Both the position numbers and the translations under genes were made by a program. A DNA stretch of 36,331 bases from a virus, in the IMG/VR virus record IMGVR_UViG_3300027791_000001, positions 1 through 36,331 of that record. One strand, given 5' to 3'. Shown one piece after another: positions 6,344 through 36,331 of the stretch. The notes below the pieces were generated by a model. The model searched no databases, was not told the origin of the DNA, and saw only the letters and a list, made by a program, of their open reading frames with translations. The first letter of the stretch is position 1. Each line of letters opens with the position of its first letter.

Positions 6344-8182
6344 ATGGGACAGTCTGTATATATAAATTTTGACACTGAAAACCTCAGATCAGCTCGAGTT
6401 CGAGGCATCTCAGATCTAAGAAATCAAAAATTCACTCAGTTCGTCGTAGGCGATAGCATCGAACTCGATCTATACCTTACGGGATCAGGAGGAATCTTAA
6501 ATATACAGGACTACTCTGCGATTCGTCTCGGCATAGGTGGTCTCGACGATCGACCTGAGTCTGGAAGTTATGAAGTAGCAGGGTCTGATACTCTAGCTTA
6601 CGATCACTCAGCGTCCGACCTACAGACCGTAGTTGCTTCTGCTGCCTCCTCAAATGTCACGACTAAGCTAACTGACTTCGTGTTCAAAATTCAATTTGAC
6701 GCAGTCGGAGCGCAAACCATCCCATCCCTCGACATCACTTTGCTGCAGCCTCGAAGCACGGTAAGCGTCAGTAGATTAGTAACTGGAGACGCTACGACTA
6801 AAGAGGTCTGGCTCTGGAGGCTCTTCAGAGATCCTCTAGCGTTTACGAATACATTCACAAACATCGCCGGCAACGGAGTGAGAGGAACTCTCTCGCTAGC
6901 TACTGCAGGACTCTACGAGCTTATAGCGCAATCTAGTTCCGTAAATACGTTCTTCGAGGTCGAGCTTACTTCCAGCGAAGGAAACGTCCGCACAGTTTTA
7001 CAAGCTAAAGTATCTCTTAACGGAGAGGTCATCGGTCACAGCTTTTCTGGTTCAGTTCCGTCCGGTGGATCAATGCCTGCCGAGGCTACAGTGTTCCTTC
7101 AGTCCTTTCCTGATCCAGATATCGTAGGCGATCTCACAGTCGATGGCGATGTCGATTTGAATAGTGGACTTCAAGTATATGGCGACGTAACCTTTGAAGA
7201 AGGTGTAGACTTTGAAAAAGGAGCAGAGTTTAAAGGTGGAGTTGGTATCAGCACAGGAGCTGCTTCAGGATATGTCTTAACCTCAGACGCTACAGGAGGA
7301 GCATCTTGGCAGGCTAATGCTGTTAGTTATCCCTTCACAACTGACTTTCTGGGAAGCACAGAGCGAACACAGAATCTAACAAGTATTACAGGCACTAGTG
7401 GCTTCAAAAATCAAAGCACTTTGGATGATATTTATATTGGCAGTAATGTGACTTCGATTGGGTCTTATTCCTTCCAGTATAGCGGTAATTTTAACATCAC
7501 CATTGCTTCGGGTTTAACAACAATTGCTAATTACGGATTCGGTGGGTCTTATATAAGTGGGTCGCTTAAGCTTCCCAACAGCGTGACTACGATTGGGGAT
7601 TACGCATTTATATATTCTACTTTGACTAGCATTACTCTTCCAACTAATGCTAGTTTCACTACGATTTCGTCTGGTGCATTCGTTTACAATAGTTTAACCA
7701 GTCTTACGATCCCAGACAGCGTTACAACGATTGGCTCTTCTGCATTTTCATACGGTTCAATATCTAGTCTTACGATCCCAGACAGCGTGACCTCGATTGG
7801 AGGTAGTGCATTTGCATTCTCTAGTTTGACTAGTGTTACTCTTCCAACTAATGCTAGTTTCACTACGATCCCCAGTTCTGCATTTCAATATTGTGGACTA
7901 ACCAGTATTACGATTCCCAGTAACGTTACCTCGATTGGGGGTTATGCATTCGCAAGTGGTGGACTAACCAGTCTTACGATTCCAAGTAGCGTGACTACGA
8001 TTGGGTCAGGTGCATTTAGATACAATGCTTCATTAACAACAATAAACTGCTTGCGTATGACTCCTCCAACCGTAGTTTCAGGTGCATTCGGCTACGTTAA
8101 TACTACGGAAATTCACGTTCCAACATTAGCCACAGGATACGGGCTTACATTAGACGGCTTGACAGTTGTAAAAGACTTGTAA
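6344..8182 (+). CDS. Tail fibre / receptor-binding protein with C-terminal BspA-type leucine-rich repeats
   Basis: About 10 repeats of ~22-24 aa of the form LTS(I/L)T(I/L)P(D/S/T)SVT(S/T)IG..AF (LRR_5/BspA type). Preceded by the fibre-like ...GYVLTSDATGGASWQ segment. Sits in the tail module next to a fibre assembly chaperone. Confidence 0.7.
   Translation: MGQSVYINFDTENLRSARVRGISDLRNQKFTQFVVGDSIELDLYLTGSGGILNIQDYSAIRLGIGGLDDRPESGSYEVAGSDTLAYDHSASDLQTVVASAASSNVTTKLTDFVFKIQFDAVGAQTIPSLDITLLQPRSTVSVSRLVTGDATTKEVWLWRLFRDPLAFTNTFTNIAGNGVRGTLSLATAGLYELIAQSSSVNTFFEVELTSSEGNVRTVLQAKVSLNGEVIGHSFSGSVPSGGSMPAEATVFLQSFPDPDIVGDLTVDGDVDLNSGLQVYGDVTFEEGVDFEKGAEFKGGVGISTGAASGYVLTSDATGGASWQANAVSYPFTTDFLGSTERTQNLTSITGTSGFKNQSTLDDIYIGSNVTSIGSYSFQYSGNFNITIASGLTTIANYGFGGSYISGSLKLPNSVTTIGDYAFIYSTLTSITLPTNASFTTISSGAFVYNSLTSLTIPDSVTTIGSSAFSYGSISSLTIPDSVTSIGGSAFAFSSLTSVTLPTNASFTTIPSSAFQYCGLTSITIPSNVTSIGGYAFASGGLTSLTIPSSVTTIGSGAFRYNASLTTINCLRMTPPTVVSGAFGYVNTTEIHVPTLATGYGLTLDGLTVVKDL
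7621..7869. repeat. Higher-order DNA repeat inside the LRR region (45 bp with 2 mismatches at 7621-7665 and 7825-7869; 204-bp period)
   Basis: tactcttccaactaatgctagtttcactacgat is identical at 7633-7665 and 7837-7869. The additional agtcttacgatcccagacagcgt copies are 66 bp apart (about 7700 and 7766). Confidence 0.9.
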
Positions 8183-8197
8183 TAGTTGGATGCCTAT

Positions 8198-8998
8198 ATG
8201 AGTAAAAAATTACATTTCGTATCTGGTCTTCCAAGAGCTTGCTCAACGCTACTCTGCAATCTACTAGCACAGAATCCAAAGGTTCACGCTACTCCTACTA
8301 GTGCCTTGCACGAAATAGGCTACATCGCTCGGCAAGTTTTTCAAACTGAAGAAGCAAAAGCAGTAGATATGAAGAATGTCCTTGAGCCTATGTATCTGGA
8401 CTACGTCAAAGCTGGTTGCGAGAATGCTTTCAATAACATCACGGACAGACCTGTAATCGTGGACAAGTGCCGATCTTGGGTTGGTCATCTTGACCAGCTA
8501 TTTAAGGTTTGGGAGGACGCTAAGGTTCTTGTTCCTGTTCGTGACATTAGAGGCGTTCTGTCCAGTATGGAGAAAAAACGCAGACAGCATCCAGAGGTAT
8601 TCAATGGCATTGAGAAAGAGAATCCCCAAAACTGGACAACAATTGATAAACGGGTAAATGGATGGCTACAGAGTCCTCCTATCGGAATTGCTATTGAGAG
8701 ATTGCACGAAGCTAAGGAACGATTCGGAGATAAACTTATGTTTGTTCACGCTGAGGACTTAACTGAAAAACCTCAGCAAGTAATGAACCGAATTTGGGAG
8801 TATCTAGGCGAAGAGCAGTTTATTCACGATACTTCTAATGTAGAGCAATACACTCAAGAATACGATGTTGGTTTTCCCTACGGAGATCACGTTATTCGAC
8901 AAGAAATAAAACCTTTAAAAAAAGACTGGCACGAGATTCTTGGTCGTTCGCTTTCAGAACAACTTAACCAAAAATTTAACTGGATAAATAATTTATGA
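8198..8998 (+). CDS. Sulfotransferase family protein
   Basis: PAPS 5'-phosphosulfate-binding-like loop GLPRACSTLL near the N-terminus and a 3'-phosphate-binding-like VPVRDIRGVLSS. First in-frame ATG is at 8198; the track ORF opens at TTG 8186. Confidence 0.7.
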   Translation: MSKKLHFVSGLPRACSTLLCNLLAQNPKVHATPTSALHEIGYIARQVFQTEEAKAVDMKNVLEPMYLDYVKAGCENAFNNITDRPVIVDKCRSWVGHLDQLFKVWEDAKVLVPVRDIRGVLSSMEKKRRQHPEVFNGIEKENPQNWTTIDKRVNGWLQSPPIGIAIERLHEAKERFGDKLMFVHAEDLTEKPQQVMNRIWEYLGEEQFIHDTSNVEQYTQEYDVGFPYGDHVIRQEIKPLKKDWHEILGRSLSEQLNQKFNWINNL

Positions 8999-16941: not shown

Positions 16942-17154
16942 ATGAATAGATCAGAACTAATCGAAGAACTAAAAAAACTAAACGACAAACTACTATGGAA
17001 GAAAGACAAAGCACGACAGACTATTATGGAACTCGACGGATCAGCATCGTTAAGCAAGCGAGAGCTACAGAGACAGCAGACTTTGATCTCGAAAAGATCA
17101 TCGAATGGATCAGAGACGGAAGCGGACGATTCGCAAAGAACGTCACAGCAGTAA
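16942..17154 (+). CDS. Upstream ORF overlapping the primase-helicase start; possible zero-frame part of a -1 frameshift product
   Basis: Carries the only canonical SD in the genome (AAGGAGG at 16931-16937, 4 nt before the ATG). Coiled-coil-like N-terminus MNRSELIEELKKLNDKLL. Overlaps 16995..18992 by 160 nt. Confidence 0.35.
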   Translation: MNRSELIEELKKLNDKLLWKKDKARQTIMELDGSASLSKRELQRQQTLISKRSSNGSETEADDSQRTSQQ

Positions 17155-18992
17155 GAGAGGCGACAGAAGCCGGAGATCTAGATCGAGCCTCCGAGCTAAA
17201 GAGAGATCTGCCTGCAGTCATGTTCTGCGGTCAATTCTCTCGCAGATCGAGCAAGGATATCACTAGCCATTCTGGGATGATCTGCATGGATGTCGATAAG
17301 ATCGAGTCTCCGGCGAAGAAGGTAGACGAGATGAGGTTCGATCCTCACGTGATCGCAGCGTTCGTCTCTCCTTCCGGCAACGGACTCAAAGCTATCTTCG
17401 CTATTCCTAACAGCATCGAGAAGCATCGCGACGCCTTCGAGTCTGCCAGACGCTATCTCTCGACATACGGACTCGAAGCGGACGAGAGCGGCAAGGATCT
17501 GTCTCGGCTATGCTTCCTGTCGCACGATCCAGAGATTCACTACGCTCCAGACGCCGTAGAGCTTCCTGTCTATATCGAGGAGGATCAGTTCGTCGCCAAG
17601 ACAGAGCCTAAAGCTCCCACAGGCGATCGTATCGGCGATCGCTACGCCTCGTCTCCTAATGTTCGAGAGCGATCTGTAGCTATCCTACAGCGTCTAGGAT
17701 GGCAACTACAGCGAGGAGACAGCACTCGGACATATTGCACTCGTCCAGAGAAGCGAGGAGGCATATCCGGAGAGCTACGTTTCGACGGATCTTTCTTCTG
17801 CTACACAGACAGCGCATCTCCTCTAGATCCTATGCAGAACTACTCAGCTTTTGCTCTATACGCTACGGCAGAACATGGAGGAGATTTCAAGGAGGCGGCT
17901 ATATCTCTAGCAGAAGAGTTCGGAGACAACGAGCCTGCGGTAGACGGTCGCGACTTCTACAACAAGACTCAAGCGGTCGAGACACAGCAGATCGAAGTAG
18001 ACGAGAAGAAGGCGCAGGCGATCGGCAATATGCCGACGTGGACTCCTTTAGATGAGATCCCACACGATCTTAACAAGATAATCATGCAGAGATATCCCGT
18101 TCTTATCGAGGGTCTACTGCACAGAGGCACGAAGATGGTTCTGGGAGGAGGCTCGAAGTCTTACAAGACTTGGACGCTGCTGAACCTAGCCTTATCCGTA
18201 GCGAGCGGCAAAGACTGGTTCGGACATAAGGTCGTGAATACCGGACTCGACGTGATCTTTCTTAACTTCGAGGTTCCGCATGAGTTCTTTCTCGATCGCG
18301 CTCGGAGCGTCTGTAAGGCGATGAATGTAGATCCTCCTGCGAATCTAAAGGTCTGGAGTCTGCGAGGAATCTGCAACGACTTGAAGCTCATTCTAGAGAC
18401 TCTGCAGGAGCGTCTGACTAACGGATGCGCTCTGCTCTGTATCGATCCAATCTACAAGGCTATCGGAGATCGAGACGAGAACAGCGCAGGCGATATCGGC
18501 ATGCTCATGAATGAGGTCGAGGCTATCGTCGAGAAGACCGGAGCGGCTGTGGCTTTCGGAGCGCACTACTCGAAAGGAAACCAATCGGAGAAGGATCCTC
18601 TCGATCGAATAAGCGGCTCTGGCGTCTTCGCTCGCGATCCAGACACGATCATGGGACTCACAGCGCACGAGGAGAAGGACTGTTATACGGTTCACTCTGC
18701 GCTACGGAACTTTGCCGGCAAGGAGCCTTTTGTGGTCGAGTGGGACTTTCCTCTCTTTAGTCTTCGCGAAGATCTGGACGCTAAAAAGCTCAAGAGAGCA
18801 GGGCAAAAGATTAGCGCAGGAGAGATCCTCGCAGAGATCACTAGCGTGGGAGTCGATCCCAGAGATTTCGTTCCGAGCATGTCGGCGAAGCACGACGTCA
18901 GCGATCGAACCGTCTACCGGCTTCTGAAGAATCTCAGCGATAAGAGAAAGATCCACAAGACAGCAGGCAACTACTTCCCTACAGTTAAATGA
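16995..18992 (+). CDS. Primase-helicase (VirE_N/BT4734-like primase domain + RecA-fold AAA_25/RepA-like domain)
   Basis: LPAVMFCGQFSRRSSKDITSHSGMICMDVDK...FVSPSGNGLKAIF...LCFLSHDP (Prim-Pol-like VirE_N pattern). Then a P-loop LGGGSKSYKTWTLLNLALSVASG and Walker B-like LLCIDPIYK. Confidence 0.7.
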   Translation: MEERQSTTDYYGTRRISIVKQARATETADFDLEKIIEWIRDGSGRFAKNVTAVREATEAGDLDRASELKRDLPAVMFCGQFSRRSSKDITSHSGMICMDVDKIESPAKKVDEMRFDPHVIAAFVSPSGNGLKAIFAIPNSIEKHRDAFESARRYLSTYGLEADESGKDLSRLCFLSHDPEIHYAPDAVELPVYIEEDQFVAKTEPKAPTGDRIGDRYASSPNVRERSVAILQRLGWQLQRGDSTRTYCTRPEKRGGISGELRFDGSFFCYTDSASPLDPMQNYSAFALYATAEHGGDFKEAAISLAEEFGDNEPAVDGRDFYNKTQAVETQQIEVDEKKAQAIGNMPTWTPLDEIPHDLNKIIMQRYPVLIEGLLHRGTKMVLGGGSKSYKTWTLLNLALSVASGKDWFGHKVVNTGLDVIFLNFEVPHEFFLDRARSVCKAMNVDPPANLKVWSLRGICNDLKLILETLQERLTNGCALLCIDPIYKAIGDRDENSAGDIGMLMNEVEAIVEKTGAAVAFGAHYSKGNQSEKDPLDRISGSGVFARDPDTIMGLTAHEEKDCYTVHSALRNFAGKEPFVVEWDFPLFSLREDLDAKKLKRAGQKISAGEILAEITSVGVDPRDFVPSMSAKHDVSDRTVYRLLKNLSDKRKIHKTAGNYFPTVK

Positions 18993-19243
18993 AAATGAAA
19001 GAAGCAATCAAGATACAGCAGTTCCTAGAATCATGCGATCCGAAGGCTATACGATTCGACAACCTAGACGACGCCATCATCGGAGTCTCTCATTCTGGCT
19101 GTCTATGCTACAGCTATCCTAAGCTCGTAGGCATATTCAAGGAGAGAGATAAGATGACTGACGAGGAGGCTGTAGACTGGATCGACTACAACGTGATCGG
19201 CACGATGGGAGGCGAGGGCTTCATCATAGTCTTCGAGAACTAG
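18989..19243 (+). CDS. Hypothetical protein (84 aa)
   Basis: ATGA-coupled to the primase-helicase stop. Confidence 0.55.
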   Translation: MKMKEAIKIQQFLESCDPKAIRFDNLDDAIIGVSHSGCLCYSYPKLVGIFKERDKMTDEEAVDWIDYNVIGTMGGEGFIIVFEN

Positions 19244-19255
19244 CCAGAATCTAAT

Positions 19256-19264
19256 CCCCCCCCC
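19256..19264. repeat. Poly-C tract (C9) in an intergenic region
   Basis: aatctaatCCCCCCCCCtatgtag. Flanks resemble those of the C8 tract at 21924-21931. Confidence 0.9.
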
Positions 19265-19270
19265 TATGTA

Positions 19271-19297
19271 GCCTCTCGCGAAATCGAGGGGCTTTTT
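19271..19297 (+). terminator. Rho-independent terminator
   Basis: GCCTCTCG-cgaaat-CGAGGGGC (8-bp stem, one G.U) followed by TTTTT. Confidence 0.7.
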
Positions 19298-19311
19298 AGT
19301 ATCTAAAAGAA

Positions 19312-19415
19312 AGTGAATAAAATGTGAATATGCTATTGACATGCCTCTAATCGGTCTTTTGTATCTGTCATATCGAAGCGGTTCTCGCCTAGAGCAAACA
19401 CGAAAAAAACACGAC
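19312..19415 (+). promoter_or_regulatory. Conserved promoter + 5' leader cassette, copy 2
   Basis: GTGAA x2 spaced 11 bp apart, TTGACA at 19336-19341, 17 nt, TTGTAT, then CTGTCATATCGAAGCGGTTCTCGCCTAGAG...ACACGACATG. Confidence 0.55.
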
Positions 19416-19514
19416 ATGACAAACATCCTCGAAAAACTCACACGCTCCTACGCTCTACTATTCGCAGTTGCTATCGCCATCCCTTCTATCCTTCGCATCG
19501 TCGAAGCAGTCTAA
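19416..19514 (+). CDS. Very small hydrophobic peptide (32 aa), cassette cargo
   Basis: ATG sits at the position where all other cassettes start their cargo. MTNILEKLTRSYALLFAVAIAIPSILRIVEAV has one TM-like segment. Read by hand. Confidence 0.35.
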   Translation: MTNILEKLTRSYALLFAVAIAIPSILRIVEAV

Positions 19515-19533
19515 CCCAAAAACACTACACACT

Positions 19534-19755
19534 ATGCCTAATCTAACAGAACTAGAGAAGCTCGTAATCTCCACTATAAAACTTCATGGAGATGACTGGT
19601 ATGCTATTCCTCACATGCACTTTAATGATATATCAGAAATTTCTGATATCGATCCTAAAAAACTTCGAGGAGTAATAAGCTCACTTGAGCAAAAAGATAT
19701 AATCCAAGAAAGCGAGCTTCCGCACTGCATGGCATGGATGGTAGTTTCTCTCTAA
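19534..19755 (+). CDS. Hypothetical protein (73 aa), low-GC insert
   Basis: ATG follows the recurrent taacccaaaaacac..ATG leader. The track start at 19468 would overlap the preceding peptide. Confidence 0.5.
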   Translation: MPNLTELEKLVISTIKLHGDDWYAIPHMHFNDISEISDIDPKKLRGVISSLEQKDIIQESELPHCMAWMVVSL

Positions 19756-19770
19756 ATCTAACCACACAAA

Positions 19771-19797
19771 GTCTCGCTCGCACGACGCGGGCGAGAC
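19771..19797 (+). other. Intercistronic stem-loop without a U-tract (11-bp stem, 5-nt loop)
   Basis: GTCTCGCTCGC-acgac-GCGGGCGAGAC with one G.U pair, followed by gctaacccaaaaaaa. Confidence 0.45.
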
Positions 19798-19818
19798 GCT
19801 AACCCAAAAAAACGCACT

Positions 19819-20064
19819 ATGAAATTCATTAACGCAAAAAACATAAAGGAAACTGCTAAGGCATACGGCAAGCAGATTCACGACAAGGATCTACAGGTCT
19901 CTTCAGACTTCGTAGCTCAGATAAACGATCTCGTTCACGCGATCGTCATGACAAACGTAGCGAAGCAAGACAAGCTCGCCGGAACGCTACGCGCTACAGA
20001 CTGGGCGCATGATCGCCTAGAAGACGCCAACGAATTACTAGAAGGCGAGGTTCTAGGATCATGA
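19819..20064 (+). CDS. Hypothetical protein, possibly histone-fold/DUF1931-like
   Basis: LQVSSDFVAQINDLVHAIVMTNVAKQDKLAGTLRATDW resembles the RVS.D....(long helix)...A...GRKT..A.D pattern of archaeal histones and DUF1931. By eye only. Confidence 0.3.
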   Translation: MKFINAKNIKETAKAYGKQIHDKDLQVSSDFVAQINDLVHAIVMTNVAKQDKLAGTLRATDWAHDRLEDANELLEGEVLGS

Positions 20065-20264
20065 GCTTAACTTACAAAGCACAAGGAGAGTGTCTGCTAT
20101 TTAGCAATGGCAACTCATACGCAAAAGTCGCTACGGCTACCGGCTGGAAGTATAGCTTCCGAAGGGACTCAGATACGGCGCAGGAGTCTCGCGACATCGA
20201 GGAGGACACGTTGCATGCGGTAGCTGTAGCCTCCAAGCCTTCGAGCAACTGGCTAACCTTCTAA
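20061..20264 (+). CDS. Hypothetical protein (67 aa)
   Basis: ATGA-coupled ORF. Confidence 0.5.
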   Translation: MSLTYKAQGECLLFSNGNSYAKVATATGWKYSFRRDSDTAQESRDIEEDTLHAVAVASKPSSNWLTF

Positions 20265-20277
20265 CCCTAAGCAAACC

Positions 20278-20406
20278 ATGAAAATCAAAAAGCAACCCAA
20301 GCTCGTCAAGACAGAGAAACAACAGGAGAGCGCGTTCATCGTTTTCCTCTGCATCGCCACAGCATCGATACTACTGATCGCATCCATCATCGCGGAGAAC
20401 CTATAA
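20278..20406 (+). CDS. Small membrane protein (42 aa)
   Basis: Read by hand: MKIKKQPKLVKTEKQQESAFIVFLCIATASILLIASIIAENL, a basic N-terminus plus one TM. Fills the gap exactly. Confidence 0.4.
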   Translation: MKIKKQPKLVKTEKQQESAFIVFLCIATASILLIASIIAENL

Positions 20407-20408
20407 AT

Positions 20409-20555
20409 ATGAAAGAACAATACAAACTGAAAATGGTCTTAGGCGGGAACATCCGAGTCTATCTCGGATCGAAATATATCGGAACTTACTTCAGCTATGG
20501 CGACATGGAGAACGACATAAGCGATCTCGAAACTAGAGGGAGCTACTGGGGATGA
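20409..20555 (+). CDS. Small hypothetical protein (48 aa)
   Basis: Read by hand. Its stop overlaps the next start (ATGA at 20552-20555). Confidence 0.45.
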   Translation: MKEQYKLKMVLGGNIRVYLGSKYIGTYFSYGDMENDISDLETRGSYWG

Positions 20556-20773
20556 GGGAATATACTCGCATACTAGAGATCGACAACAGCGACGCCGTCG
20601 CCTGTCATGTCGTGGTCAAGTTCATGATCGACGGGGAAGCCTTCGCCGGCTTTAACTCGATCTGGTCGTCGGAGCCTATAATGGATGACGACCTAGCTCA
20701 TCTGCAGGAATGGATCATGCTCGACAAGAGCAAATGGCAAGAGCGGACATTAGAAGGCTCTGACAGCGTCTAG
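20552..20773 (+). CDS. Hypothetical protein (73 aa)
   Basis: ATGA-coupled. Last gene before the large non-coding region. Confidence 0.55.
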   Translation: MREYTRILEIDNSDAVACHVVVKFMIDGEAFAGFNSIWSSEPIMDDDLAHLQEWIMLDKSKWQERTLEGSDSV

Positions 20774-20848
20774 GAGTTCCTTTAGATATCTACGAGACAC
20801 GAGACGCCTCTAGAGGTATGCAGGCTCTCCTGTAGGCTCTCAGAGCTT

Positions 20849-21137
20849 TTGACACTATTGACACGACTATTGACGCTGTCAAAAGTGGTCTGTCGGCAGG
20901 AGACCTTTTGACACGCTCTGTCATTTTTAATTCTCGGATCCTCAGCGACTTAGGATTTATTGACACGGCTATTGACAGGCGTTGTCATTTTTGCCGCCAC
21001 CTATATAGTAATAGCAATACTATTATAGTTGTAGTAGCTCGCATTCGTGACATCGCCATCGCAGAAGCGAGGCGGCTGTCACTTCGCGAGCAGCTCTGGA
21101 TGTTTGAATGTTTGTCACTATCAGCAATTTGACATTC
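20849..21137. promoter_or_regulatory. Iteron / inverted-repeat cluster with an AT-rich core: putative replication origin or regulatory hub
   Basis: TTGACAC at 20849, 20858, 20908, 20960; TTGACGC at 20870 (palindrome TTGACgctGTCAA); TTGACAG at 20972. The TATTGACACG(A/G)CTATTGAC pair recurs 102 bp apart. GTGACA/TGTCAC dyad at 21047/21076 and TGTCAC..TTGACA at 21112/21128. The first 30 nt of 21001-21040 contain 6 G+C. Confidence 0.5.
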
Positions 21138-21163
21138 AGAGGAATCGAATCGATACTCTTGTC

Positions 21164-21433
21164 ATGGATGAAAATAACGAACTCAAGGCTCTCCGATTTA
21201 TTCGAGAGATTAACATTGCGATACGCGAGCTAGAAAACCAATCGTCGGCGACGAGCAAGCGATATAAGAAAGGCGTCAAGATGCTTCAGAGAGAGATATG
21301 CTCTATCGAGGCTCTGCTTGACGATGGAGCTATCATCGAAGGCACAGAGCCTTGGGTCATTCTGAGCCAGCAGCTTAGGTCTCTGATCTTCAACCCTACT
21401 CTCTCGAACATCGAAGAAGATAACTCTATCTAG
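21164..21433 (+). CDS. Hypothetical coiled-coil protein (89 aa)
   Basis: First ATG after the repeat cluster; the track start at 21047 lies inside the repeats. Contains MDENNELKALRFIREINIAIRELENQ. Confidence 0.45.
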   Translation: MDENNELKALRFIREINIAIRELENQSSATSKRYKKGVKMLQREICSIEALLDDGAIIEGTEPWVILSQQLRSLIFNPTLSNIEEDNSI

Positions 21434-21434
21434 C

Positions 21435-21878
21435 ATGAAGACATGTCGGATCATAGAGGGCTTAGACTATCCCCAGTCTAAGGCAGAAGATCCTGCCCCC
21501 CATCATGCTATCACATGCGAGATCATAGCTAGGGTTCAACAATTAGACTCACTACTAGCGGGGGAGGGGTGCGCCTCCGGAGGTGTTCGCCTCCTCCACC
21601 GATTATCTACAATCGCGAGAAGATCACCACGCGCCTACCGCCTACTACTGGACATGCTCTCCTCTCAGAGAAGCCTATCCGAATCCTTCGAGGCTTTAGC
21701 ATCGAAGCGCGAGCATTCACGACAATCATGGCTACAGAACGCGCAGGCAGACGTAGAGATCGTGACTGAAGTATGGGAAGAAGTAGGACTGGTAATGTCT
21801 GAACTAATAAAGCGTAGGTCGATCGAGGAATTGAACCGCAAGACTGACGAACCGCTAGAACTAGGTAGAACTAGATAG
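21435..21878 (+). CDS. Hypothetical protein (147 aa); position compatible with a late-gene regulator
   Basis: ORF starts 2 nt after the upstream stop, directly upstream of the packaging module. No motif recognised. Confidence 0.5.
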   Translation: MKTCRIIEGLDYPQSKAEDPAPHHAITCEIIARVQQLDSLLAGEGCASGGVRLLHRLSTIARRSPRAYRLLLDMLSSQRSLSESFEALASKREHSRQSWLQNAQADVEIVTEVWEEVGLVMSELIKRRSIEELNRKTDEPLELGRTR

Positions 21879-21895
21879 AACTAGATAGAACTGGG
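21856..21895. repeat. 4 x 10-bp tandem repeat TAGAACTAG(G/A) (last unit TAGAACTGGG)
   Basis: tagaactagg tagaactaga tagaactaga tagaactggg, a one-helical-turn period. Overlaps the stop codon of 21435..21878 and lies 130 bp upstream of terS. Confidence 0.9.
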
Positions 21896-21923
21896 ACTCT
21901 GTCGCAGCTTAAAAATTTAATTG

Positions 21924-21931
21924 CCCCCCCC
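21924..21931. repeat. Poly-C tract (C8) upstream of terS
   Basis: aatttaattgCCCCCCCCttatttag. Confidence 0.9.
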
Positions 21932-22025
21932 TTATTTAGTTACTCCTAGCCAAAAAACCTTTTGCAAGTCGCGCTCGAACCTCTGCGTTTTTACGAGTTT
22001 TTGAATCGATAGCCAATTGAAGAAG

Positions 22026-22532
22026 ATGAAGACTCTAAAAATTAAAACGTGGAAGCAGATCGCCGAGGCTCTGGGAGTCACTCAGCCGACGCTCTCGAAG
22101 TGGAGGCGCGAGTCTGACAACTGTCCGCAAACTAAGGATCTCGAAGCATGGAAACTCTGGTCTGCTAATCGTGCAATGTCTCAAGAGAAGGGCGCAGGAC
22201 GCATCGCGGTCTCCGGTCGAGAATACACGGCGGCAGACATCGCAGATCTAAAGGCAAAGCTCATCGCCGCGCAGGAGCGTCGAGAGAATGCTATGGGACA
22301 GATCAGAGAGCTAGAGCTAGCTCAGAAGCGCGACAACTTAATCCCAGAGTCGGAGGCGACCGAGGCTCTCATCAAACTTTTGACTCCCCTAAGACGCTTA
22401 CTAGACGCTCTGCCTCGACAAGTCGCGGCGCAAGCTAATCCTGCTAACCCCAATATCGCAGAGCTTGCAGTTCGCAACGGACTTGACGAAAGAGTCTTTA
22501 GTGAGATAGAAAAATTGTTTCTCGGCAGGTAG
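22026..22532 (+). CDS. terS: Terminase small subunit (Nu1-like: N-terminal HTH + coiled coil)
   Basis: WKQIAEALGVTQPTLSKWRRE HTH, then DLKAKLIAAQERRENAMGQIRELELAQKRDNLIPESEA, typical of Nu1-type small terminases. Lies upstream of the GpA-type terL. First ATG at 22026 (TTG at 22017). Confidence 0.55.
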   Translation: MKTLKIKTWKQIAEALGVTQPTLSKWRRESDNCPQTKDLEAWKLWSANRAMSQEKGAGRIAVSGREYTAADIADLKAKLIAAQERRENAMGQIRELELAQKRDNLIPESEATEALIKLLTPLRRLLDALPRQVAAQANPANPNIAELAVRNGLDERVFSEIEKLFLGR

Positions 22533-22607
22533 ACTGAGCTATTAAGACGCCAGTCGGTTTAGTCGTGTTTACCGTATTATTCGCCTGTCGAGAAACTCTA
22601 CTTATAT

Positions 22608-23372
22608 ATGAACAAGATGTCACTCAACTCCAAAGGCTTCGACAGCATGCTGCGAACCTTGAAGAAGAGGACAGGGGCTAGCTTCGAGGACGTGCTAAAA
22701 GCTACTACCGGATCTATCCTAGAGGGAGCCGCTCGAAAGACGGGGAAGTCTAAGCCTGCCATCATCACGGCGGCAGTAAAGAAGTCGCTCTCCACTCGCT
22801 TCGTCTCTTCTGCCGGAGACAAGATACGGAAAGCTAGAGACGGGTCTTTGATCTTTAAGCCAAGAGGGACAGGCGCAGGCAGATGGATTAGGATCCGAAG
22901 CGACTACGCTCTCAACGCAATCAGCGCGAAGAATCCTTCCGGTCGGACTTTAGCGGCTAAGTTCAAGGGCAGAGTCAATAAGGCTCTGGGCGAGCTTAGA
23001 AGACTGCAGGCTAAGATCATTAAGGATAAGAAGACAAGGATCGCGGCATCACAGAAGAGCTTTCTAGAGATCATGAAGAAGCTAAAGATCCCCATCAAGT
23101 CTACTCGCGGACTAGGAGCTGCAATGAAAGCGAAGATCGGCGGTAATCACGCGCAAGCCGTGTCTGGAAGGATCTACAAAAACAAGGATGACGCCGCAAT
23201 CCTCATAAAGAGTCGATCTCAGTCTGCACTTAATCATAGAGCGGGAGGCATTCGAGCCTTCGCCGCCGCCTTTAACGGTCAAACTAAAGCCTTTGCGACT
23301 GCGGCGGCTAAGGATCTAGAGGCTTATGCAAAAAAATTCGCGACAAAAAATGGCTTCGCTGTTAAAAAATGA
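22608..23372 (+). CDS. Highly basic Lys/Ala-rich protein (254 aa) between terS and terL
   Basis: Long ORF, very K/R/A-rich. No motif recognised. Confidence 0.55.
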   Translation: MNKMSLNSKGFDSMLRTLKKRTGASFEDVLKATTGSILEGAARKTGKSKPAIITAAVKKSLSTRFVSSAGDKIRKARDGSLIFKPRGTGAGRWIRIRSDYALNAISAKNPSGRTLAAKFKGRVNKALGELRRLQAKIIKDKKTRIAASQKSFLEIMKKLKIPIKSTRGLGAAMKAKIGGNHAQAVSGRIYKNKDDAAILIKSRSQSALNHRAGGIRAFAAAFNGQTKAFATAAAKDLEAYAKKFATKNGFAVKK

Positions 23373-25173
23373 GGTAGGGAAACTCTTCTCTCCTCGGCGT
23401 CTGAAGTCTCCTGTAGACTGGGCGTTCGATAACTGCGTTCTGAGAGACAATGTCTCCGAGCTTCCCGGATCTCTGAAGGTCTTTCCCTACGCTCAACAGC
23501 CTCTCAACGATCTGATCGATCCTACGATCAGCAAGATCACTCTCTGCTGGGGATCGCAGTCGAGCAAGACTACGACAATGTATGCAGGCATCGGATATCT
23601 CCTCAGCGAGTTTCCGAAGGACACGCTCTGGATCATGCCGAGCGCAGAGAACGCTCGTAACTTCTCGAAGGGTCGATGGCTTCCGTTCATCGACGACTGT
23701 AAGCCTCTCAAGGATCAATGTCCTTTGAGCGCAGCCACAGGCAGAGTCGATAGCGACAAGATCACGAACATGCGGCAGGAGTTCCTGTCATGCACTCTAA
23801 CCTTCGCCGGAGCAGGCTCCGAGAATAACGTGAAGTCGGCTCCGGTCGCCTATCTAGTTCTGGACGAGATCGACGAGATCGATCCGGACATTCGCCTAGC
23901 TGCGCTCGAACGTATTAAGGGTCGGCGAGAATATAAGATCATCCAGACAAGCACTCCCAAAGAAGAGACGGGAGGGATCTGGGAAGAGTATCTCTACGGC
24001 GATCAGCGCAGATACTACATGCCTTGTCCGCACTGCGAAGAGTTCATACAGTTCGAGTGGAGGCAGAAAGACAAGGAAGGAGCCTCTCGATACTCGATCA
24101 CGTTCGACGACGAAGCGAAGCTCGAAGACGGGAGCTACGACTTCGATCTCGTAGCATCGACAGCAGCTTATGTCTGTCCTTGCTGTAGCGGCAAGATCCT
24201 CGACGCTCATAAGCCTACGATGATTAAAAGCGGAGAGTGGAGATCTCAGAATCCTAACGCTCCCGCGAATCATCGAAGCTATCATCTTAACTCTCTCTAC
24301 GCTCCGGCGATGACTTTCTCCGCGCTCATCATTAACTGGCTACAGGTAAGCTCATCGATGCACGGTCTTCGCAAGTTCGTGCAAGGTAACTTGGCAGAGC
24401 CGTGGAAAGATGACTGGGCGAACCAAGAGCAGGCAGATGCAAACGAACTCGAACTCGACTACGAGCGCGGCGACCTTCGAGGCGAGTATCGAGTCATGGG
24501 AGTCGATACGCAGACAGACTCTTTCTGGTTCGTCGTTCGCGGCTTCGACCGAGATGGGACGAGCTATCTAATCGACTGCGGTCAAGTCGCCTCTTTCTCC
24601 GAGTTAGATCTTATCTACGATCAGCACAAAGCTCACGCAGCTATCATCGACTGCGCGGGCGATAGAACTTCTGAGATCTACGAGGATGTCTTTCGCCGTC
24701 GCTCTAAATGGTTCGGCTCTCGCGGCTGGAAGAACCTTCAAGGCGATCAGCCATATCGACTGCAGATGAAAGATCCTTTTACCGGAGACACGAAGGGTCG
24801 AGGCGGACGATCTAAGATCCGATACCTTCACGTCAATAAGAGCATATACGAGGAGGAGCTTTCTCGTCTTCGATCTCGACAGCTCTCCGGCTTCCACACT
24901 TTCACAGACACTCCGTCGGTCTACTACGATCAGCTCTTCTCGACTTACTGGACAAAGGAGACAGACCGAAGCGGTCACATTAAAGTCGTGAAGAAACTGA
25001 AGCGCAGCAAGGGAGATCACTTATGGGACTGCGAGATCCTCGCTCGCGCTCTGTCCAAGTTTATCGGCATAGCTCGAATCGATCGAGGAGATATGCCGAC
25101 AATGTTTGACGAGCGTCCTCCCAGAAAGCGCGACGCATCGACGCGAAGCCGCAGTTCTACGGGCTTTTGGTAG
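23326..25173 (+). CDS. terL: Terminase large subunit, lambda GpA family
   Basis: FPYAQQPLNDL..ITLCWGSQSSKTT (P-loop)..LWIMPSAENARNFSKGRWLPFIDD, Walker B YLVLDEIDE, and a Cys4 finger CPHCEEF...CPCCSG, all typical of GpA-type terminases. The start may be ATG 23350. Confidence 0.85.
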   Translation: MQKNSRQKMASLLKNEVGKLFSPRRLKSPVDWAFDNCVLRDNVSELPGSLKVFPYAQQPLNDLIDPTISKITLCWGSQSSKTTTMYAGIGYLLSEFPKDTLWIMPSAENARNFSKGRWLPFIDDCKPLKDQCPLSAATGRVDSDKITNMRQEFLSCTLTFAGAGSENNVKSAPVAYLVLDEIDEIDPDIRLAALERIKGRREYKIIQTSTPKEETGGIWEEYLYGDQRRYYMPCPHCEEFIQFEWRQKDKEGASRYSITFDDEAKLEDGSYDFDLVASTAAYVCPCCSGKILDAHKPTMIKSGEWRSQNPNAPANHRSYHLNSLYAPAMTFSALIINWLQVSSSMHGLRKFVQGNLAEPWKDDWANQEQADANELELDYERGDLRGEYRVMGVDTQTDSFWFVVRGFDRDGTSYLIDCGQVASFSELDLIYDQHKAHAAIIDCAGDRTSEIYEDVFRRRSKWFGSRGWKNLQGDQPYRLQMKDPFTGDTKGRGGRSKIRYLHVNKSIYEEELSRLRSRQLSGFHTFTDTPSVYYDQLFSTYWTKETDRSGHIKVVKKLKRSKGDHLWDCEILARALSKFIGIARIDRGDMPTMFDERPPRKRDASTRSRSSTGFW

Positions 25174-25184
25174 GTATAAAAAAA

Positions 25185-25291
25185 AGTGAAAAAATAGTGA
25201 AATAAGGTATTGACGTCCTCAAACCTGTCGTTCTTTATGTGTTCTATCGAAGCGATTAACGCCTAGAAAAAACCTAATAAAAAACACGACT
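25185..25291 (+). promoter_or_regulatory. Conserved promoter + 5' leader cassette, copy 3
   Basis: GTGAA x2 (11 bp apart), TTGACG at 25210-25215, 17 nt, CTTTAT, ..TCTATCGAAGCGATTAACGCCTAGAAAAAACCTAATAAAAAACACGACTATG. Confidence 0.55.
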
Positions 25292-25528
25292 ATGAAAAAC
25301 ACTACTTACGCTACCGTTTCTATTCACTACTCAGATCATGTCTACGTCGCGACTGTCAGACGCATCGAGGACATCGTCCGCTATCTCAAAAGCGAGACTC
25401 GCCGCTTCGCAGTATCGAGCGACTTCAAGGTCTTCAACGCGAAGAGCAAGTCATTCGAGAACAAGCTCGAAGATGCGCTGTTCTGCGATAACTCTTTCGA
25501 CAATCTCGTCGGCATCTTTGAACTCTAA
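25292..25528 (+). CDS. Hypothetical protein (78 aa), cassette cargo
   Basis: ATG directly after the leader. No motif recognised. Confidence 0.6.
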   Translation: MKNTTYATVSIHYSDHVYVATVRRIEDIVRYLKSETRRFAVSSDFKVFNAKSKSFENKLEDALFCDNSFDNLVGIFEL

Positions 25529-25567
25529 AAAATTTTGTGTCATAACGTGTAACAAATAATAGGTTAA

Positions 25568-25602
25568 GCCTCGCTCGGAGTCGTGTCTGAGCGGGGCTTT
25601 TT
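25568..25602 (+). terminator. Rho-independent terminator
   Basis: GCCTCGCTC-(12-nt loop)-GAGCGGGGC followed by TTTTT. Confidence 0.65.
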
Positions 25603-25616
25603 CGTGCCTAAAAATA

Positions 25617-25719
25617 AGTGAAAGAAAAGTGAATAAGGTATTGACTCGACGATCTTATTAGTTTTCTATCTTTCATATCGAAGCGATTAACGCCTAGAAA
25701 AAACCTAAAAACACGACTC
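25617..25719 (+). promoter_or_regulatory. Conserved promoter + 5' leader cassette, copy 4
   Basis: GTGAA x2 (11 bp apart), TTGACT at 25641-25646, 17 nt, TTCTAT, CTTTCATATCGAAGCGATTAACGCCTAGAAAAAACCTAAAAACACGACTCATG. Confidence 0.55.
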
Positions 25720-26442
25720 ATGAATCACGACACTATCAAAAAAAGCGACGCCTACAAAAACGACGACAACGCCTGCACAGTAGTAACTCTCGCCGTTATC
25801 GCAGGCATCAAGTTCGAGGACGCTCAAGCTGTTATGGCAGACGCCGGTCGCAAACTGAATCAAGGATGCCAGAGAAGAATCTACGATTCGGTCTACAGCA
25901 AGTTTTTCAAGTTCAACAAGAGCGGTCTAGATTCTTACAATGGCAAAACAGTTTGCCAGTTCATGAAGGGCGCACGGAAGTTCCTCAAAAATAACACGGT
26001 CGCGGTTCTTACAAGCGATCACATCTTCGCCGTAAAGAACGGCAAGATCGAAGACTGGATGAGCGCGAATCGCAGACATCGCATCGAGAGCATCTACGTA
26101 GTCGAGGAGACACTCCAAGACGTAGACTGTGCAGACGCTCTCGTAAGAGGTCGCAAGATCGTAGCGGACAGCCTAGCGAAGAGCCAAGCGAAGCTCGAAA
26201 AGAAGAAGGCTAGCTTCACTACTCGCGTCTACAACAAACACGAGAAGAGCTTCTGCGATTTCAAGTATACCTTCAAGATGGTCGCGAAGACCGGCGACGT
26301 GAAGGTCAAGTTCGTCCGCTACGCAGATAATGCCGATTGGCTCGACGCTTTCCTCAACAAGTATGCCGAGCATTACACGATCGATGCCGACGTTCAGAGA
26401 AACAGTCACAAACTTCCGGAGGTAAGCGTCTCTAAAGTATAG
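25720..26442 (+). CDS. Hypothetical protein (240 aa), cassette cargo; possible papain-like Cys/His/Asp fold at the N-terminus
   Basis: NDDNACTVVTLAV (Cys19) ... TSDHIFAVKNGKIEDW (His, then Asp/Glu) has the spacing typical of C39-like/papain-fold domains. By eye only. Confidence 0.3.
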   Translation: MNHDTIKKSDAYKNDDNACTVVTLAVIAGIKFEDAQAVMADAGRKLNQGCQRRIYDSVYSKFFKFNKSGLDSYNGKTVCQFMKGARKFLKNNTVAVLTSDHIFAVKNGKIEDWMSANRRHRIESIYVVEETLQDVDCADALVRGRKIVADSLAKSQAKLEKKKASFTTRVYNKHEKSFCDFKYTFKMVAKTGDVKVKFVRYADNADWLDAFLNKYAEHYTIDADVQRNSHKLPEVSVSKV

Positions 26443-33740: not shown

Positions 33741-34346
33741 ATGCAGCTACGGGCGGTCAGTTTTAATGATGCCGCTAAAAAGCGCATTCTAGACGCCGCA
33801 GCTTTTGAGAAGAAGCTGCGGATGGAAGCTGTAGTCGGTGTCGATCAAGAGATCGCCGGTTTAAAACTAAGGCAGATATCAGTCAGAGATCTATTGCACT
33901 TAGAGTTTACAGAGAACAGGCTAACTATGGGCGAGGAGCCTTGGCTGGAAGACCTAATGGCTTTTGTTTTAATGCTTTCTAACGATAAGCCATTTTTTAA
34001 GTCTCGATATGCTAAAAAAGTGGGAAGCATCATTCGAGAGAATGAAGATGTAAGATTAGATTTAATCTGCTACTTTAACGCAGCTTTTACTGACATGCCT
34101 TCGAGCGTAAATCCTTCCGGCGTATCCGAAAAGTTCGATAGCACGGTCTCCGTCGTGACTCTGGTAGACGGCATAGCGTTTAACTATGGGTGGACTCTTG
34201 ACGACATACTAGACACGCCCGTATCGACCGCCCTTCAGCTATTGCAGCGCATCCTTCAACGTAGCTCAGAAGGATACTCTCCGCGCAACGCAATAACTCA
34301 ACAGGCTAAAGCAAAAGAACTAAATAGACTAAAAGAAAATGGCTAA
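33741..34346 (+). CDS. Tail assembly chaperone (gpG/GT position)
   Basis: 201 aa, directly upstream of and overlapping (8 nt) the tape-measure start. No convincing frameshift site found. Confidence 0.45.
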   Translation: MQLRAVSFNDAAKKRILDAAAFEKKLRMEAVVGVDQEIAGLKLRQISVRDLLHLEFTENRLTMGEEPWLEDLMAFVLMLSNDKPFFKSRYAKKVGSIIRENEDVRLDLICYFNAAFTDMPSSVNPSGVSEKFDSTVSVVTLVDGIAFNYGWTLDDILDTPVSTALQLLQRILQRSSEGYSPRNAITQQAKAKELNRLKENG

Positions 34347-36331
34347 TTTTTCACTACTAGCAAAGATAGGACTAGACTCCAAAGGCTTTCAAAAGGGTCT
34401 AGACAAAGCTAAAACTGGAGTCAGTAAGTTTGGCAGGGGCGTTTTAAACGCGAGCAACAAGCTCGCTAAAATGGGGTTCGGAGCCGCCGCCGCAGGTTTT
34501 GCGCTGCTCTCTAAGAACGCCATCGCTCTCGGCTCCGAGCTTTCAGACATAGCAAACAACACGGGATTCGCCACAGAAAAGTTTCAAGTCTTTAGGGGCG
34601 CACTTATCGACGCCGGAGGTGCTGCCAAGAGTATGGAGAAGGCTATCGTCATCATGCAGAAGGCGGTCGTTCAAGGCTCTGAGGGTCTGACTACTTATCA
34701 GCGAGCCTTCGAGCGTATAGGTCTGAACGTAGACGATCTCAGAAAGATGCGTCCGGAGGATCAGTTCGAGACGATAGGAAAAGCCATCGCAGGAGCGACA
34801 GATCAGCAGGGAGCTTTAACTGCAGCGATCGAGATCTTCGGACAGAAGAACGCAGGCAGACTCATAGAGGTTTTCAAGCGACTCGACAAAGATGGCTACG
34901 GAAAGATGGCTAAAGATATCGAGAAAGCCTACGGAATCATGGACGCGGAGACTCAAAAAGCTCTCGACAAGGCGGCAGATACGATAGAGCGATTTAAGAA
35001 TAAAGCTACGATTCGAGTAGGAGAGTTGATAGCGGGAGAAGCGGACGGAGCCGCGCTAAAAATTCTAGGACTTTCGATTGCCAAAGCGGGCGCACAGCTA
35101 GGCGTAGGAATGATAAACGGAATAGCGGATAGTGTCCGTGCCGCTCGCGAAGCTTTCGGAGCTTTCGCTGACTTCACATCAAATGCCTTCCTTACAAGTT
35201 TACGACTAATGTGGAAGACTTTCCAGATAGATTGGTTCGAGGGACTAAACAAGATGATCGCTGGGTTAAATAAGATCCCCGGAGTAGAGATGGAGCCTAT
35301 AAATACAGACAAACTTTACGACGATTTAGATAAGGGCATAAAGGATCAGGGCAAATCTTATAACGAATTTTTTCAGGCTAGAATGGATCAAGGTTCGGAG
35401 TTCGATATGGAGAATCGTCTCGACTACAGTCCGAGCGAGTTTTACGATAAAGAGATAGAGAACCAGAAAGCGATACTCGCAGCATCTAGAAAAAAGCAGG
35501 AGGAACTCGAAAATTTAGGAGGCGAAGGCGGCACAGGAGGATCCGGAGGATCCGAAGGAGGCGCAGGAGGATCCGGAGGCGAAGGCGGCACAGGATCCGG
35601 AGGAGGCGATCCCGAGGCAGACGAAGAAAAGAGGAAGGAAAAAATAAAAGCTCTAGAAAAGGAGATTAACGACATGCAGCTCGAAGCTATTCGAGCGCAA
35701 GCCAAAGGAGACGAGGATGCACAATCCTCTCTGGAGAAAAGAGCAGAGCTGTCTAAGAAAATCTTAGATATCATGAGAAAATATAACGTCTCGATGGAGG
35801 AGGCTTCAAGTCTCGCCGAGCAGACTGCAGAAAAGCCAGAGGAGCCAACAGCAGACGATAAGAGATCGAAGAAGATCGAGGGTCTGGAGAAGCAGATAGA
35901 AGATATGGAGCTACAGGCTATACGCGCTCAAGCTAATGGCGACGAGAAGGGTCAGGCTGCTATGGAGAGAAGGGTAGATCTAGCAAACAGCATCGTAGAC
36001 ATCATGAACGATCACAATGTCTCGCAGGAAGAAGCCACTCGCATAGCCAATAAAATGAGAGATGCAGGAGAAGCGAAAGATGCTCCTAGGAACGAACTAA
36101 CGGGAAGAGATCTTCAAGATGCAGCCAATCTAGCAGGCAAAGGACAGGCTGGAGATCCAGCCTCCTTTATGGGAGGTAAAGATATTCGATTTGAGAGAGA
36201 CGGAAAAGGACAGGCTGGAGATCAAGCCTCCTTTCTGGGAGGTAAAGATATTCGATTTGAGAGAGACGGAAAAGGTAATTTTCAACAGTTTGTTGGCGGT
36301 AGCAAAGGCAAGGTTTTTACCGAAGACCAAA
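34339..36331 (+). CDS. Tail tape measure protein (runs off the window end and continues at 1..225; 696 aa in total)
   Basis: Frame translated by hand from ATG 34339 with no stop to 36331; absent from the track because no stop lies in the linear window. TP901-type N-terminal core (AKMGFGAAAAGFALLSKNAIALGSELSDIANNTGF...), Gly-rich linker, internal 76-aa and 22-aa repeats. Confidence 0.85.
   Translation, partial: MANFSLLAKIGLDSKGFQKGLDKAKTGVSKFGRGVLNASNKLAKMGFGAAAAGFALLSKNAIALGSELSDIANNTGFATEKFQVFRGALIDAGGAAKSMEKAIVIMQKAVVQGSEGLTTYQRAFERIGLNVDDLRKMRPEDQFETIGKAIAGATDQQGALTAAIEIFGQKNAGRLIEVFKRLDKDGYGKMAKDIEKAYGIMDAETQKALDKAADTIERFKNKATIRVGELIAGEADGAALKILGLSIAKAGAQLGVGMINGIADSVRAAREAFGAFADFTSNAFLTSLRLMWKTFQIDWFEGLNKMIAGLNKIPGVEMEPINTDKLYDDLDKGIKDQGKSYNEFFQARMDQGSEFDMENRLDYSPSEFYDKEIENQKAILAASRKKQEELENLGGEGGTGGSGGSEGGAGGSGGEGGTGSGGGDPEADEEKRKEKIKALEKEINDMQLEAIRAQAKGDEDAQSSLEKRAELSKKILDIMRKYNVSMEEASSLAEQTAEKPEEPTADDKRSKKIEGLEKQIEDMELQAIRAQANGDEKGQAAMERRVDLANSIVDIMNDHNVSQEEATRIANKMRDAGEAKDAPRNELTGRDLQDAANLAGKGQAGDPASFMGGKDIRFERDGKGQAGDQASFLGGKDIRFERDGKGNFQQFVGGSKGKVFTEDQ
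36139..36270. repeat. 2 x 66-bp tandem repeat (22 aa: KGQAGD(P/Q)ASF(M/L)GGKDIRFERDG) at the contig junction
   Basis: Units at 36139-36204 and 36205-36270 differ at 2 positions. The second unit starts exactly where the terminal overlap (window position 1) starts. Confidence 0.9.
36205..36331. repeat. Terminal overlap: identical to 1..127
   Basis: See the feature at 1..127. Confidence 0.95.

Follow-up and report, generated by a model that had tools for sequence, protein, structure and literature searches.

A candidate iteron-type replication origin in an uncultured marine cos phage family

The stretch analysed here, called the window throughout, is the whole of the 36,331-nucleotide (nt) IMG/VR virus record IMGVR_UViG_3300027791_000001. 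Its two ends (1-127 and 36205-36331) are identical over 127 nt, the assembly overlap of a circular contig; the window is thus a complete circular assembly of a 36.2-kb phage genome, and the phage belongs to an uncultured family of marine phages with cohesive ends (cos). Nearly all genes lie on the + strand, and a tape-measure-like open reading frame (ORF) that starts at 34339 crosses the circular junction. A replication block, followed by a run of small ORFs ending at 20773, is separated from two further genes, ORF89 and ORF147, by a gene-free region packed with short repeats (20774-21163), which we call the hub. We consider it likely that the hub is the phage's replication origin, of the iteron type, serving a self-loading primase-helicase encoded in the replication block.

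Repeats, AT-rich box and palindrome of the hub

At 390 nt, against 224 nt for the runner-up, the hub is the largest intergenic gap of the genome, as a first-pass annotation made from the sequence had noted. A coding function was rejected: in a five-phage alignment of the hub region (alignment A1), indels that are not multiples of three cross both the ORF at 20908-21132 and a GTG extension from 21047. The direct repeats listed by that annotation are all present (TTGACAC at 20849, 20858, 20908 and 20960, TTGACGC at 20870 and TTGACAG at 20972), and the two longer recurrences that it reported, 102 bp and 64 bp apart, form repeat families D1 and D2. Two of its dyads, TTGAC-gct-GTCAA (20870-20882) and GTGACA/TGTCAC (21047/21076), stand as described; the last was misplaced by one base, with TGTCAC at 21113 and TTGACA at 21129.

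These repeats are strongly concentrated in the hub. TGACA/TGTCA half-sites occur 13 times in its 390 nt, where the rest of the genome predicts 0.51 (Poisson P ~2e-14), and TTGACA occurs 6 times against 0.14 expected. TTGACAC is found outside the hub only at 6369 and 29563, and the genome holds no second iteron cluster. The shorter core TATTGAC is found 17 times genome-wide, where 3.7 would be expected.

An AT-rich box has three clusters of direct and inverted repeats to its left (Table 1). The AT-rich patch picked out earlier, 21001-21030, indeed has 6 G+C in 30 nt, and a 36-nt segment at this patch has 22% GC, placing it in the lowest 0.7% of the genome. On a map of half-sites, the box and its AT-rich stretch (21000-21037) sit between the left clusters and the GTGACA/TGTCAC arms on the right. 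We dropped the idea that CCTATATAG, within the box, is a repeated late promoter, as it occurs once in the genome. Relatives carrying L numbers below are related marine phage contigs, retrieved with the large terminase (TerL), ORF147 and the primase-helicase as queries. A homologue of cluster 1 was found in L032, L008, L005, L003 and L024, and other half-sites occupy its position in L045, L056, L103 and L115; dyad 2 takes the form of a perfect dyad, TTGACAG-gct-CTGTCAA, in the A1 relatives.

To the right of the box lies a 55-nt palindrome, which folds at -34.1 kcal/mol as RNA (z -5.3) and at -19.7 kcal/mol as DNA (z -4.6); its complementary strand folds equally well. After homologues were extracted by anchoring on a conserved motif, the three-tier hairpin proved to be kept in 17 of 17 homologues of very different sequence, on both strands, with the minus strand more stable in 12 of the 17 and no strand-specific excess of G-U pairs. 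As the inner stem is misaligned by MAFFT, pairing was counted over the two outer tiers only. In an 11-sequence alignment, these tiers are paired in 96.9% of cells, compared with 85% in shuffles (none of 500 reaches the observed score), and pairing falls to 36-65% when the partners are slid against each other; compensatory changes are seen on 4 of the 12 pairs. The middle tier is an inverted pair of each lineage's iteron core: GTGACA/TGTCAC in the window, exact iterons in L071, L072, L103 and L116, and TTCC/GGAA in L045 and L115. Because the folding shows no strand bias and the arms resemble iterons, we think an element of DNA more likely than an RNA: a cruciform or a palindrome bound by protein.

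Table 1. Features of the hub and of the genes around it, in window coordinates. Alignment A1 comprises five phages; HTH, helix-turn-helix.
Feature	Position	Strand	Remarks
PD-(D/E)XK nuclease			replication block upstream of hub; Pfam/PHROG
DnaA_C-like HTH protein	14777-15073		replication block
HTH protein (P96)	15070-15360		replication block
Primase-helicase (BT4734-like_N + AAA_25)	16995-18992	+	Pfam, PHROG; proposed initiator
C-terminal winged-helix domain, residues 608-662	18816-18980	+	predicted; proposed iteron reader
Recognition helix DRTVYRLLKNLSD, residues 637-649	18903-18941	+
Left border block CTGCAGGCTCTCCTG with 11-mers TGCAGGCTCTC / TGTAGGCTCTC 12 nt apart	20817-20841		family D3; invariant columns in A1
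Iteron cluster 1, TTGACAC-ta-TTGACAC-gacta-TTGAC-gc-TGTCAA	20849-20882		three direct copies, the last forming a dyad
Iteron dyad 2, TTGACAC-gctc-TGTCA then TTTTT	20908-20928		nearly invariant in A1
Iteron cluster 3, TTGACAC-ggcta-TTGACA-ggcgt-TGTCA then TTTTT	20960-20992		most conserved block in A1
Invariant box CACCTATATAGTAAT (CCTATATAG at 21000-21008) and AT-rich stretch	20998-21037		proposed DNA-unwinding element
Three-tier imperfect palindrome, 55 nt	21037-21091		GCTCGC/GCGAGC; GTGACA/TGTCAC (iteron-core arms); inner GC stem-loop
Promoter of ORF89-ORF147	21129-21163	+	-35 TTGACA 21129-21134; -10-like GATACT 21152-21157; promoter scan
ORF89	21164-21433	+	always directly downstream of hub, with ORF147
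ORF147	21435-21878	+	followed by 138-nt gap
Probable cos cohesive end AGTCGCGCTCGAAC, 14 nt	21967-21980		37 nt upstream of small terminase gene
Small terminase (TerS)	22017-22532		phrog_57
Large terminase (TerL)	23326-25173		lambda GpA-like

Lineage-specific repeats and the C-terminus of the primase-helicase

Wherever a contig extends far enough, a region homologous to the hub is found directly upstream of its ORF89 homologue, giving about 45 unique versions with a fixed layout. From left to right this starts with an intrinsic terminator (in many relatives) or the primase-helicase stop codon, followed by a 6-bp half-site, direct and inverted, in two or three clusters; next come a YTATAWRG box (CCTATAWAG), usually between two convergent half-sites, a short CG-rich spacer and a three-tier palindrome of 50-60 nt. 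Last is TTGAC(A/T), which in 42 of 43 unique hubs, spanning all iteron classes, precedes the ORF89 ATG by 34-38 nt (mode 35). Convergent iterons flank the box in L045, L115, L116, L117, L118 and L119; a YTATAWRG box is present in every iteron class apart from the compact GCGACA/ACGACA hubs of L071 and L072, in which we saw no clear one. At least 12 lineages have nothing but the hub in the 200-480 nt from the primase-helicase stop codon to ORF89. In the lineage of the window, small accessory ORFs amounting to 1.2-3.6 kb have been inserted between the two.

Terminators just upstream of the hub were seen at L032:1-50, L024:3410-3440, L044:3370-3395, L045:3030-3070 and L115:8980-9008, and none directly upstream of it in the window or its closest relatives. 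One contig, L116, has a second repeat-rich non-coding region right after the primase-helicase gene (6500-6800), with TACTCCCCC repeats, CCCTAGGGGGATT, CTTATATATAC and CGCGC.

The repeats occupy the same positions from phage to phage, and their sequence changes. At least nine classes of half-site were found: TTGACA in the window and many other contigs, ATGACA in L092, ACGACA in L056, L072, L104 and L120, GCGACA in L071, L105 and L106, TTCCCG in L045, L095, L098, L102 and L107, ATCCYGG in L096, TCGTCCA in L100 and L103, TTCCAA in L115 and TTCTCA in L116. Since the half-sites vary by lineage while the -35 box of ORF89 stays constant, the repeats are better understood as sites for a phage protein than as promoter boxes; hexamers that differ between phages cannot be put down to a host sigma factor, but can be to a varying phage DNA-binding protein. 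The identity of iteron and -35 hexamer thus looks particular to the lineage of the window. We rejected an array of sigma-70 -35 boxes or promoters because the hexamers are replaced in relatives, the copy at 21129 alone being constant and properly spaced to a -10 element and the ATG. The spacing from TTGAC(A/T) to the ATG puts the A of the start codon at about +1, which suggests that the TTGACA at 21129 is the true -35 box and that the ORF89-ORF147 mRNA is probably leaderless; ORF89 has no Shine-Dalgarno sequence (21129-21166).

Which phage protein might read the repeats? We propose the C-terminal winged helix of the primase-helicase, a domain that the first-pass annotation did not single out. 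PHROGs label this protein a DNA primase or a DnaB-like helicase, and a phmmer search against PDB sequences found no relative. AlphaFold2, given a 37-sequence alignment, predicts the last 58 residues as helix-helix-helix-beta-beta (confidence score pLDDT ~90 there). The nearest Foldseek neighbours of this domain are the winged helices of MepR, Fur, BlaI, CggR, IclR and the MCM C-terminus, at weak E but with probability 0.95-1.0 and a root-mean-square deviation of 2-3 Å over ~57 columns; Pfam winged HTH families match the same segment, HTH_11 scoring above cut-off for the L072 domain. The C-terminal domain is also hypervariable, mean pairwise identity being 31% there, 57% in the primase domain and 65% in the helicase core.

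Variation in its recognition helix follows the class of the iteron. Helices of the form (S/T)(D/E/N/S)R(T/S)(V/I)(Y/H/S)R accompany TTGACA; RT(I/V)QR accompanies ACGACA in two distant lineages (L056, and L072/L104/L120), RTVER GCGACA, SEKTIRNR TTCCCG, SEKTIRNK ATCCYGG, GRSRAY TCGTCCA, GKSTVYSQ TTCCAA and ANATAYRH TTCTCA. Three times (P0019, P0011 and P0026) the iteron class was predicted from the helix before the DNA was read, and all three predictions were correct.

The closest comparison comes from L056 and L117, whose flanking DNA is 91-95% identical and whose palindromes are 87% identical, but whose iteron halves cannot be aligned (ACGACA and TTGACA, respectively). Between their primase-helicases there are 61 differences in 668 residues, 34 of them in the last 118 and 26 in the last 68, with at most one difference per 50 residues in the primase and helicase cores. 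We regard this pair, which has the look of a natural experiment, as the strongest single result.

Among the readers nominated earlier, the HTH proteins at 14777, 15070, 21164 and 21435 fared less well: the last three show no co-variation with the repeats, and the first is not universal. No DnaA_C-like protein such as that at 14777 lies within 4.5 kb upstream of the primase gene in L115 or L116, both of which have typical hubs. P96 has the same recognition helix in the TTGACA and ACGACA classes. As specificity determinants, ORF89 and ORF147 were rejected as well, ORF89 differing at 2 of 89 residues between L056 and L117 and ORF147 carrying an invariant motif. The HTH of TerS, GVTxxTLSKW(R/K)R, was also dropped, being the same in TTGACA and TTCCCG phages.

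The origin model and its alternatives

The first-pass annotation had already raised the possibility that iterons flanking an AT-rich element make the hub an origin, and the comparative evidence favours it: the half-site tracks the recognition helix, the hub adjoins the primase-helicase gene in many relatives, and iterons converge on an invariant box. Under this model, the 6-bp repeats (TTGACA in the window) would be iterons bound by the C-terminal winged helix of the primase-helicase, arranged as three direct and inverted clusters to the left of the AT-rich box and as iteron-core arms within the palindrome on its right. Winged helices bound on both sides of the box would allow helicase hexamers to assemble there as rings, the box would melt or the palindrome extrude, and the fused primase would then prime synthesis. 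These steps of binding, melting, helicase loading and priming are inferred. The last TTGACA (21129) would not be an iteron but the -35 box of the leaderless ORF89-ORF147 operon that adjoins the origin. Transcription is known to assist other phage origins, and we conjecture that adjacent promoters may do so here.

The best parallel is found in the Staphylococcus aureus pathogenicity islands (SaPIs). The C-terminal winged helix of SaPI Rep, or PriRep5, reads iterons of 5-6 nt; SaPI origins have 6-12 iterons just after the rep ORF, in opposite orientations on both sides of an AT-rich centre; and Rep, which is fused to a primase in SaPI5, differs in specificity between elements (PMC9371898). All of these features are seen in this phage or its relatives. 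SaPI Rep also loads itself without a loader (PMC9371898). Differences are that the helicase core here is AAA_25 (RecA/DnaB/RepA-like) rather than of the SaPI Rep type, that the primase domain is BT4734-like_N, that the element is a cos phage and not a satellite, that the candidate origin of this genome lies 1.8 kb from the gene, and that the hub has two extra features, an invariant CCTATAWAG box and a conserved palindrome of 55 nt. The superfamily 3 (SF3), or D5_N, helicase core of SaPI Rep, P4 alpha and pRN1 ORF904 is lacking in the phage protein, which would resemble them in mode of action without being a member of their family.

The Sulfolobus plasmid pRN1 has a structurally conserved stem-loop origin after its primase-helicase-winged-helix gene, and similar stem-loops are known in phages (PMC4234260). 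It resembles the hub in having a terminator and then a large stem-loop downstream of the replication gene (PMC4234260, PMC2777425). Further likenesses are a stem-loop conserved in structure and not in sequence, and an initiator, ORF904 (prim/pol, SF3 helicase and winged helix), that combines primase, helicase and winged helix. In contrast to the hub, where iterons dominate and the palindrome spans 55 nt, pRN1 has no recognisable iterons and a stem-loop of ~100 nt, and its helicase belongs to a different superfamily.

P4 alpha reads short repeats, direct and inverted, at ori and at crr. P4 needs crr as a second cis site, whereas this genome has a single iteron cluster region, and P4 alpha pairs a DnaG-type primase with an SF3 helicase. 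Like the phage protein, alpha has primase, helicase and a C-terminal winged-helix domain for DNA binding in one polypeptide (PMC2777425). In phage lambda, the differences from the hub lie in location and reader: ori is inside the O gene, O protein reads it and P recruits the host DnaB, whereas the hub is intergenic and its candidate reader is the helicase itself. The lambda ori has dyad-symmetric iterons, an AT-rich stretch and a palindrome in the same order as the hub. No O- or P-like protein was found among the scanned window proteins with Pfam and PHROG.

Several observations weigh against an origin. Thirty-five other places in the genome are equally AT-rich, several relatives have only a short AT-rich stretch, and no origin signal emerges from GC skew. 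On the side of the proposed reader, Y, H and S at the central position of the helix all pair with TTGACA, so that there is no simple one-residue code, and the association of helix and iteron is confounded with phylogeny, except for the L056/L117 pair and the recurrence of Q with ACGACA. The second repeat region of L116 is unexplained, being additional to a typical TTCTCA hub upstream of ORF89. Finally, the hub of the window lies 1781 nt past the stop codon of the primase-helicase (18992), with small ORFs between, and across the family hub linkage is tighter with ORF89 than with the primase gene.

That tighter link would also suit a multi-operator transcription switch, in which a regulator on the repeats controls the ORF89-ORF147 promoter and read-through across cos into the packaging and structural genes, with no role in replication. 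Such a switch would be well placed between the early small-gene block and the packaging genes, with an intrinsic terminator just upstream in relatives, a conserved promoter at its right edge and dyad-symmetric sites overlapping promoter-like hexamers. We nevertheless find it unlikely, as it is the primase-helicase, not a regulator, that supplies the sole DNA-binding domain found to follow the repeat class, and the obvious autoregulators, ORF89 and ORF147, do not co-vary with the repeats. Dyad half-sites are also 0-5 nt apart, or ~24 nt apart in the palindrome, a variability that does not suit a rigid dimeric repressor, and no repressor or integrase module was seen in the window. The form of this idea put forward in the first-pass annotation, operators built on a TATTGAC -35 core shared with six promoter cassettes elsewhere in the genome, is unsupported, given that the repeats of relatives differ while the true -35 is constant.

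A combination of origin and switch, with helicase loading and RNA polymerase competing or cooperating on the same hexamers, seems to us rather improbable. It draws on the identity of the initiator's iteron with the host -35 hexamer and on the position of the origin beside a leaderless operon near the right cos end. If true, it would couple the start of replication to ORF89/ORF147 expression and to read-through across the closed cos into the packaging genes.

The structural conservation of the palindrome, with its compensatory changes and z of about -5, might instead reflect a structured non-coding RNA or leader transcribed from a TATA-box promoter, such as a put-like antitermination or processing element. 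A promoter-like TTGTCA-16-TATAGT lies upstream, and a tmRNA-like insert just downstream in L056 and L085 suggests that the region is transcribed. Against this stand the equal folding and strand behaviour of the 17 homologues described above, and a middle tier that carries the iteron core of each class and so points to recognition at the DNA level. No U-tract follows the hairpin, the -35 and -10 elements that would drive this transcript lack conservation between classes, and Rfam 15 gave no match in the window at gathering score and none in 20700-22100 at E up to 1. We give an RNA little chance of being correct. Least probable is a cosB- or pac-like packaging region bound by the small terminase: the hub is indeed upstream of both terminase genes, TerS and TerL, and close to the right end of the virion DNA, but the cohesive end is 800-1200 bp away with two genes between, and the TerS HTH does not change between TTGACA and TTCCCG phages.

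Surrounding genes and significance

The position of cos was read from contig ends. AGTCGC is the exact start of at least five independent related contigs, the exact end of at least four others falls 14 nt later, and in one sample a left-end and a right-end contig overlap across the segment. This is the pattern of filled-in cohesive ends, and AGTCGCGCTCGAAC is therefore probably the cohesive end. The hub would accordingly lie 800-1200 bp inside the right end of the virion DNA.

Neither ORF89 nor ORF147 matches a Pfam or PHROG family or a known fold. ORF147 is all-helical, with a motif, SRQSWLQNAQ, that is invariant in all iteron classes, and it always stands just before cos and TerS, a position where some phages encode a late activator. 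Its model (pLDDT 75) has no meaningful structural neighbour, the best having E = 3, with a hint of sigma-70 region 4 at probability 0.12. Four tandem 10-mers, GAACTAG(G/A)TA, run from 21866 to 21905 at the 3' end of ORF147, just upstream of cos, and are not conserved in the close relative L037. L056 (6559-6624), like L085 (~3600-3665), carries an insert of 66 nt that separates the palindrome from the ORF89 promoter and matches the Rfam tmRNA family RF00023 (56 bits, above gathering score, E 2e-21). This insert, which is absent from the window and for which ARAGORN makes no call, corresponds to the tRNA-like domain only, its 5' and 3' ends joined by a short hairpin with no mRNA part. ARAGORN found no tRNA in the window or in L056.

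Six near-identical cassettes with a moron-like look are scattered through the genome (11935-12048, 19304-19467, 25178-25291, 25609-25719, 26435-26546 and 31599-31709), each preceding a small ORF. Each has two GTGAA boxes ~11 nt apart, (T/C)ATTGAC, 21 nt and TATCTK; a hairpin, the conserved ATCGAAGCG...CGCC, comes next, and then an A-rich leader with ACACGAC at its end. The TATTGAC earlier ascribed to all six is carried by five, and the sixth has CATTGAC; with 20 nt after TTGACN, the spacer exceeds what a standard sigma-70 promoter allows.

In the tail-fibre region, reading of the translations suggests a 346-residue glycosyltransferase-like ORF (4295-5335), an ORF resembling an NAD-dependent sugar epimerase (5332-6321) and one resembling a sulfotransferase (8186-8998); these may be auxiliary genes for surface-glycan modification. 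A megablast search of 16000-26000 against GenBank phages gave no match, tblastn with TerL returned distant matches only (<27% identity, lambda GpA-like terminases), and a profile search with ORF147 through contigs from 185,579 genomes found no prophage relative. The helicase-only homologues P0081, P0092 and P0097 are labelled by their sources as coming from metagenome-assembled genomes of Verrucomicrobiota, a weak hint to the host phylum.

We conclude that the hub, if it is an origin, represents no new principle of replication; it would be an ordinary kind of element in a new uncultured phage family, with an unusually clean series of specificity switches. The likeness of the repeats to -35 boxes appears to be specific to one lineage, which is a reason not to label clusters of this kind promoter arrays. 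The analysis offers a testable origin together with a testable initiator domain for a family of marine cos phages that is widespread and uncultured. The at least nine natural pairs of iteron and winged helix, one of them a recent switch, would provide a data set for the evolution of initiator specificity and a source of orthogonal replicons.

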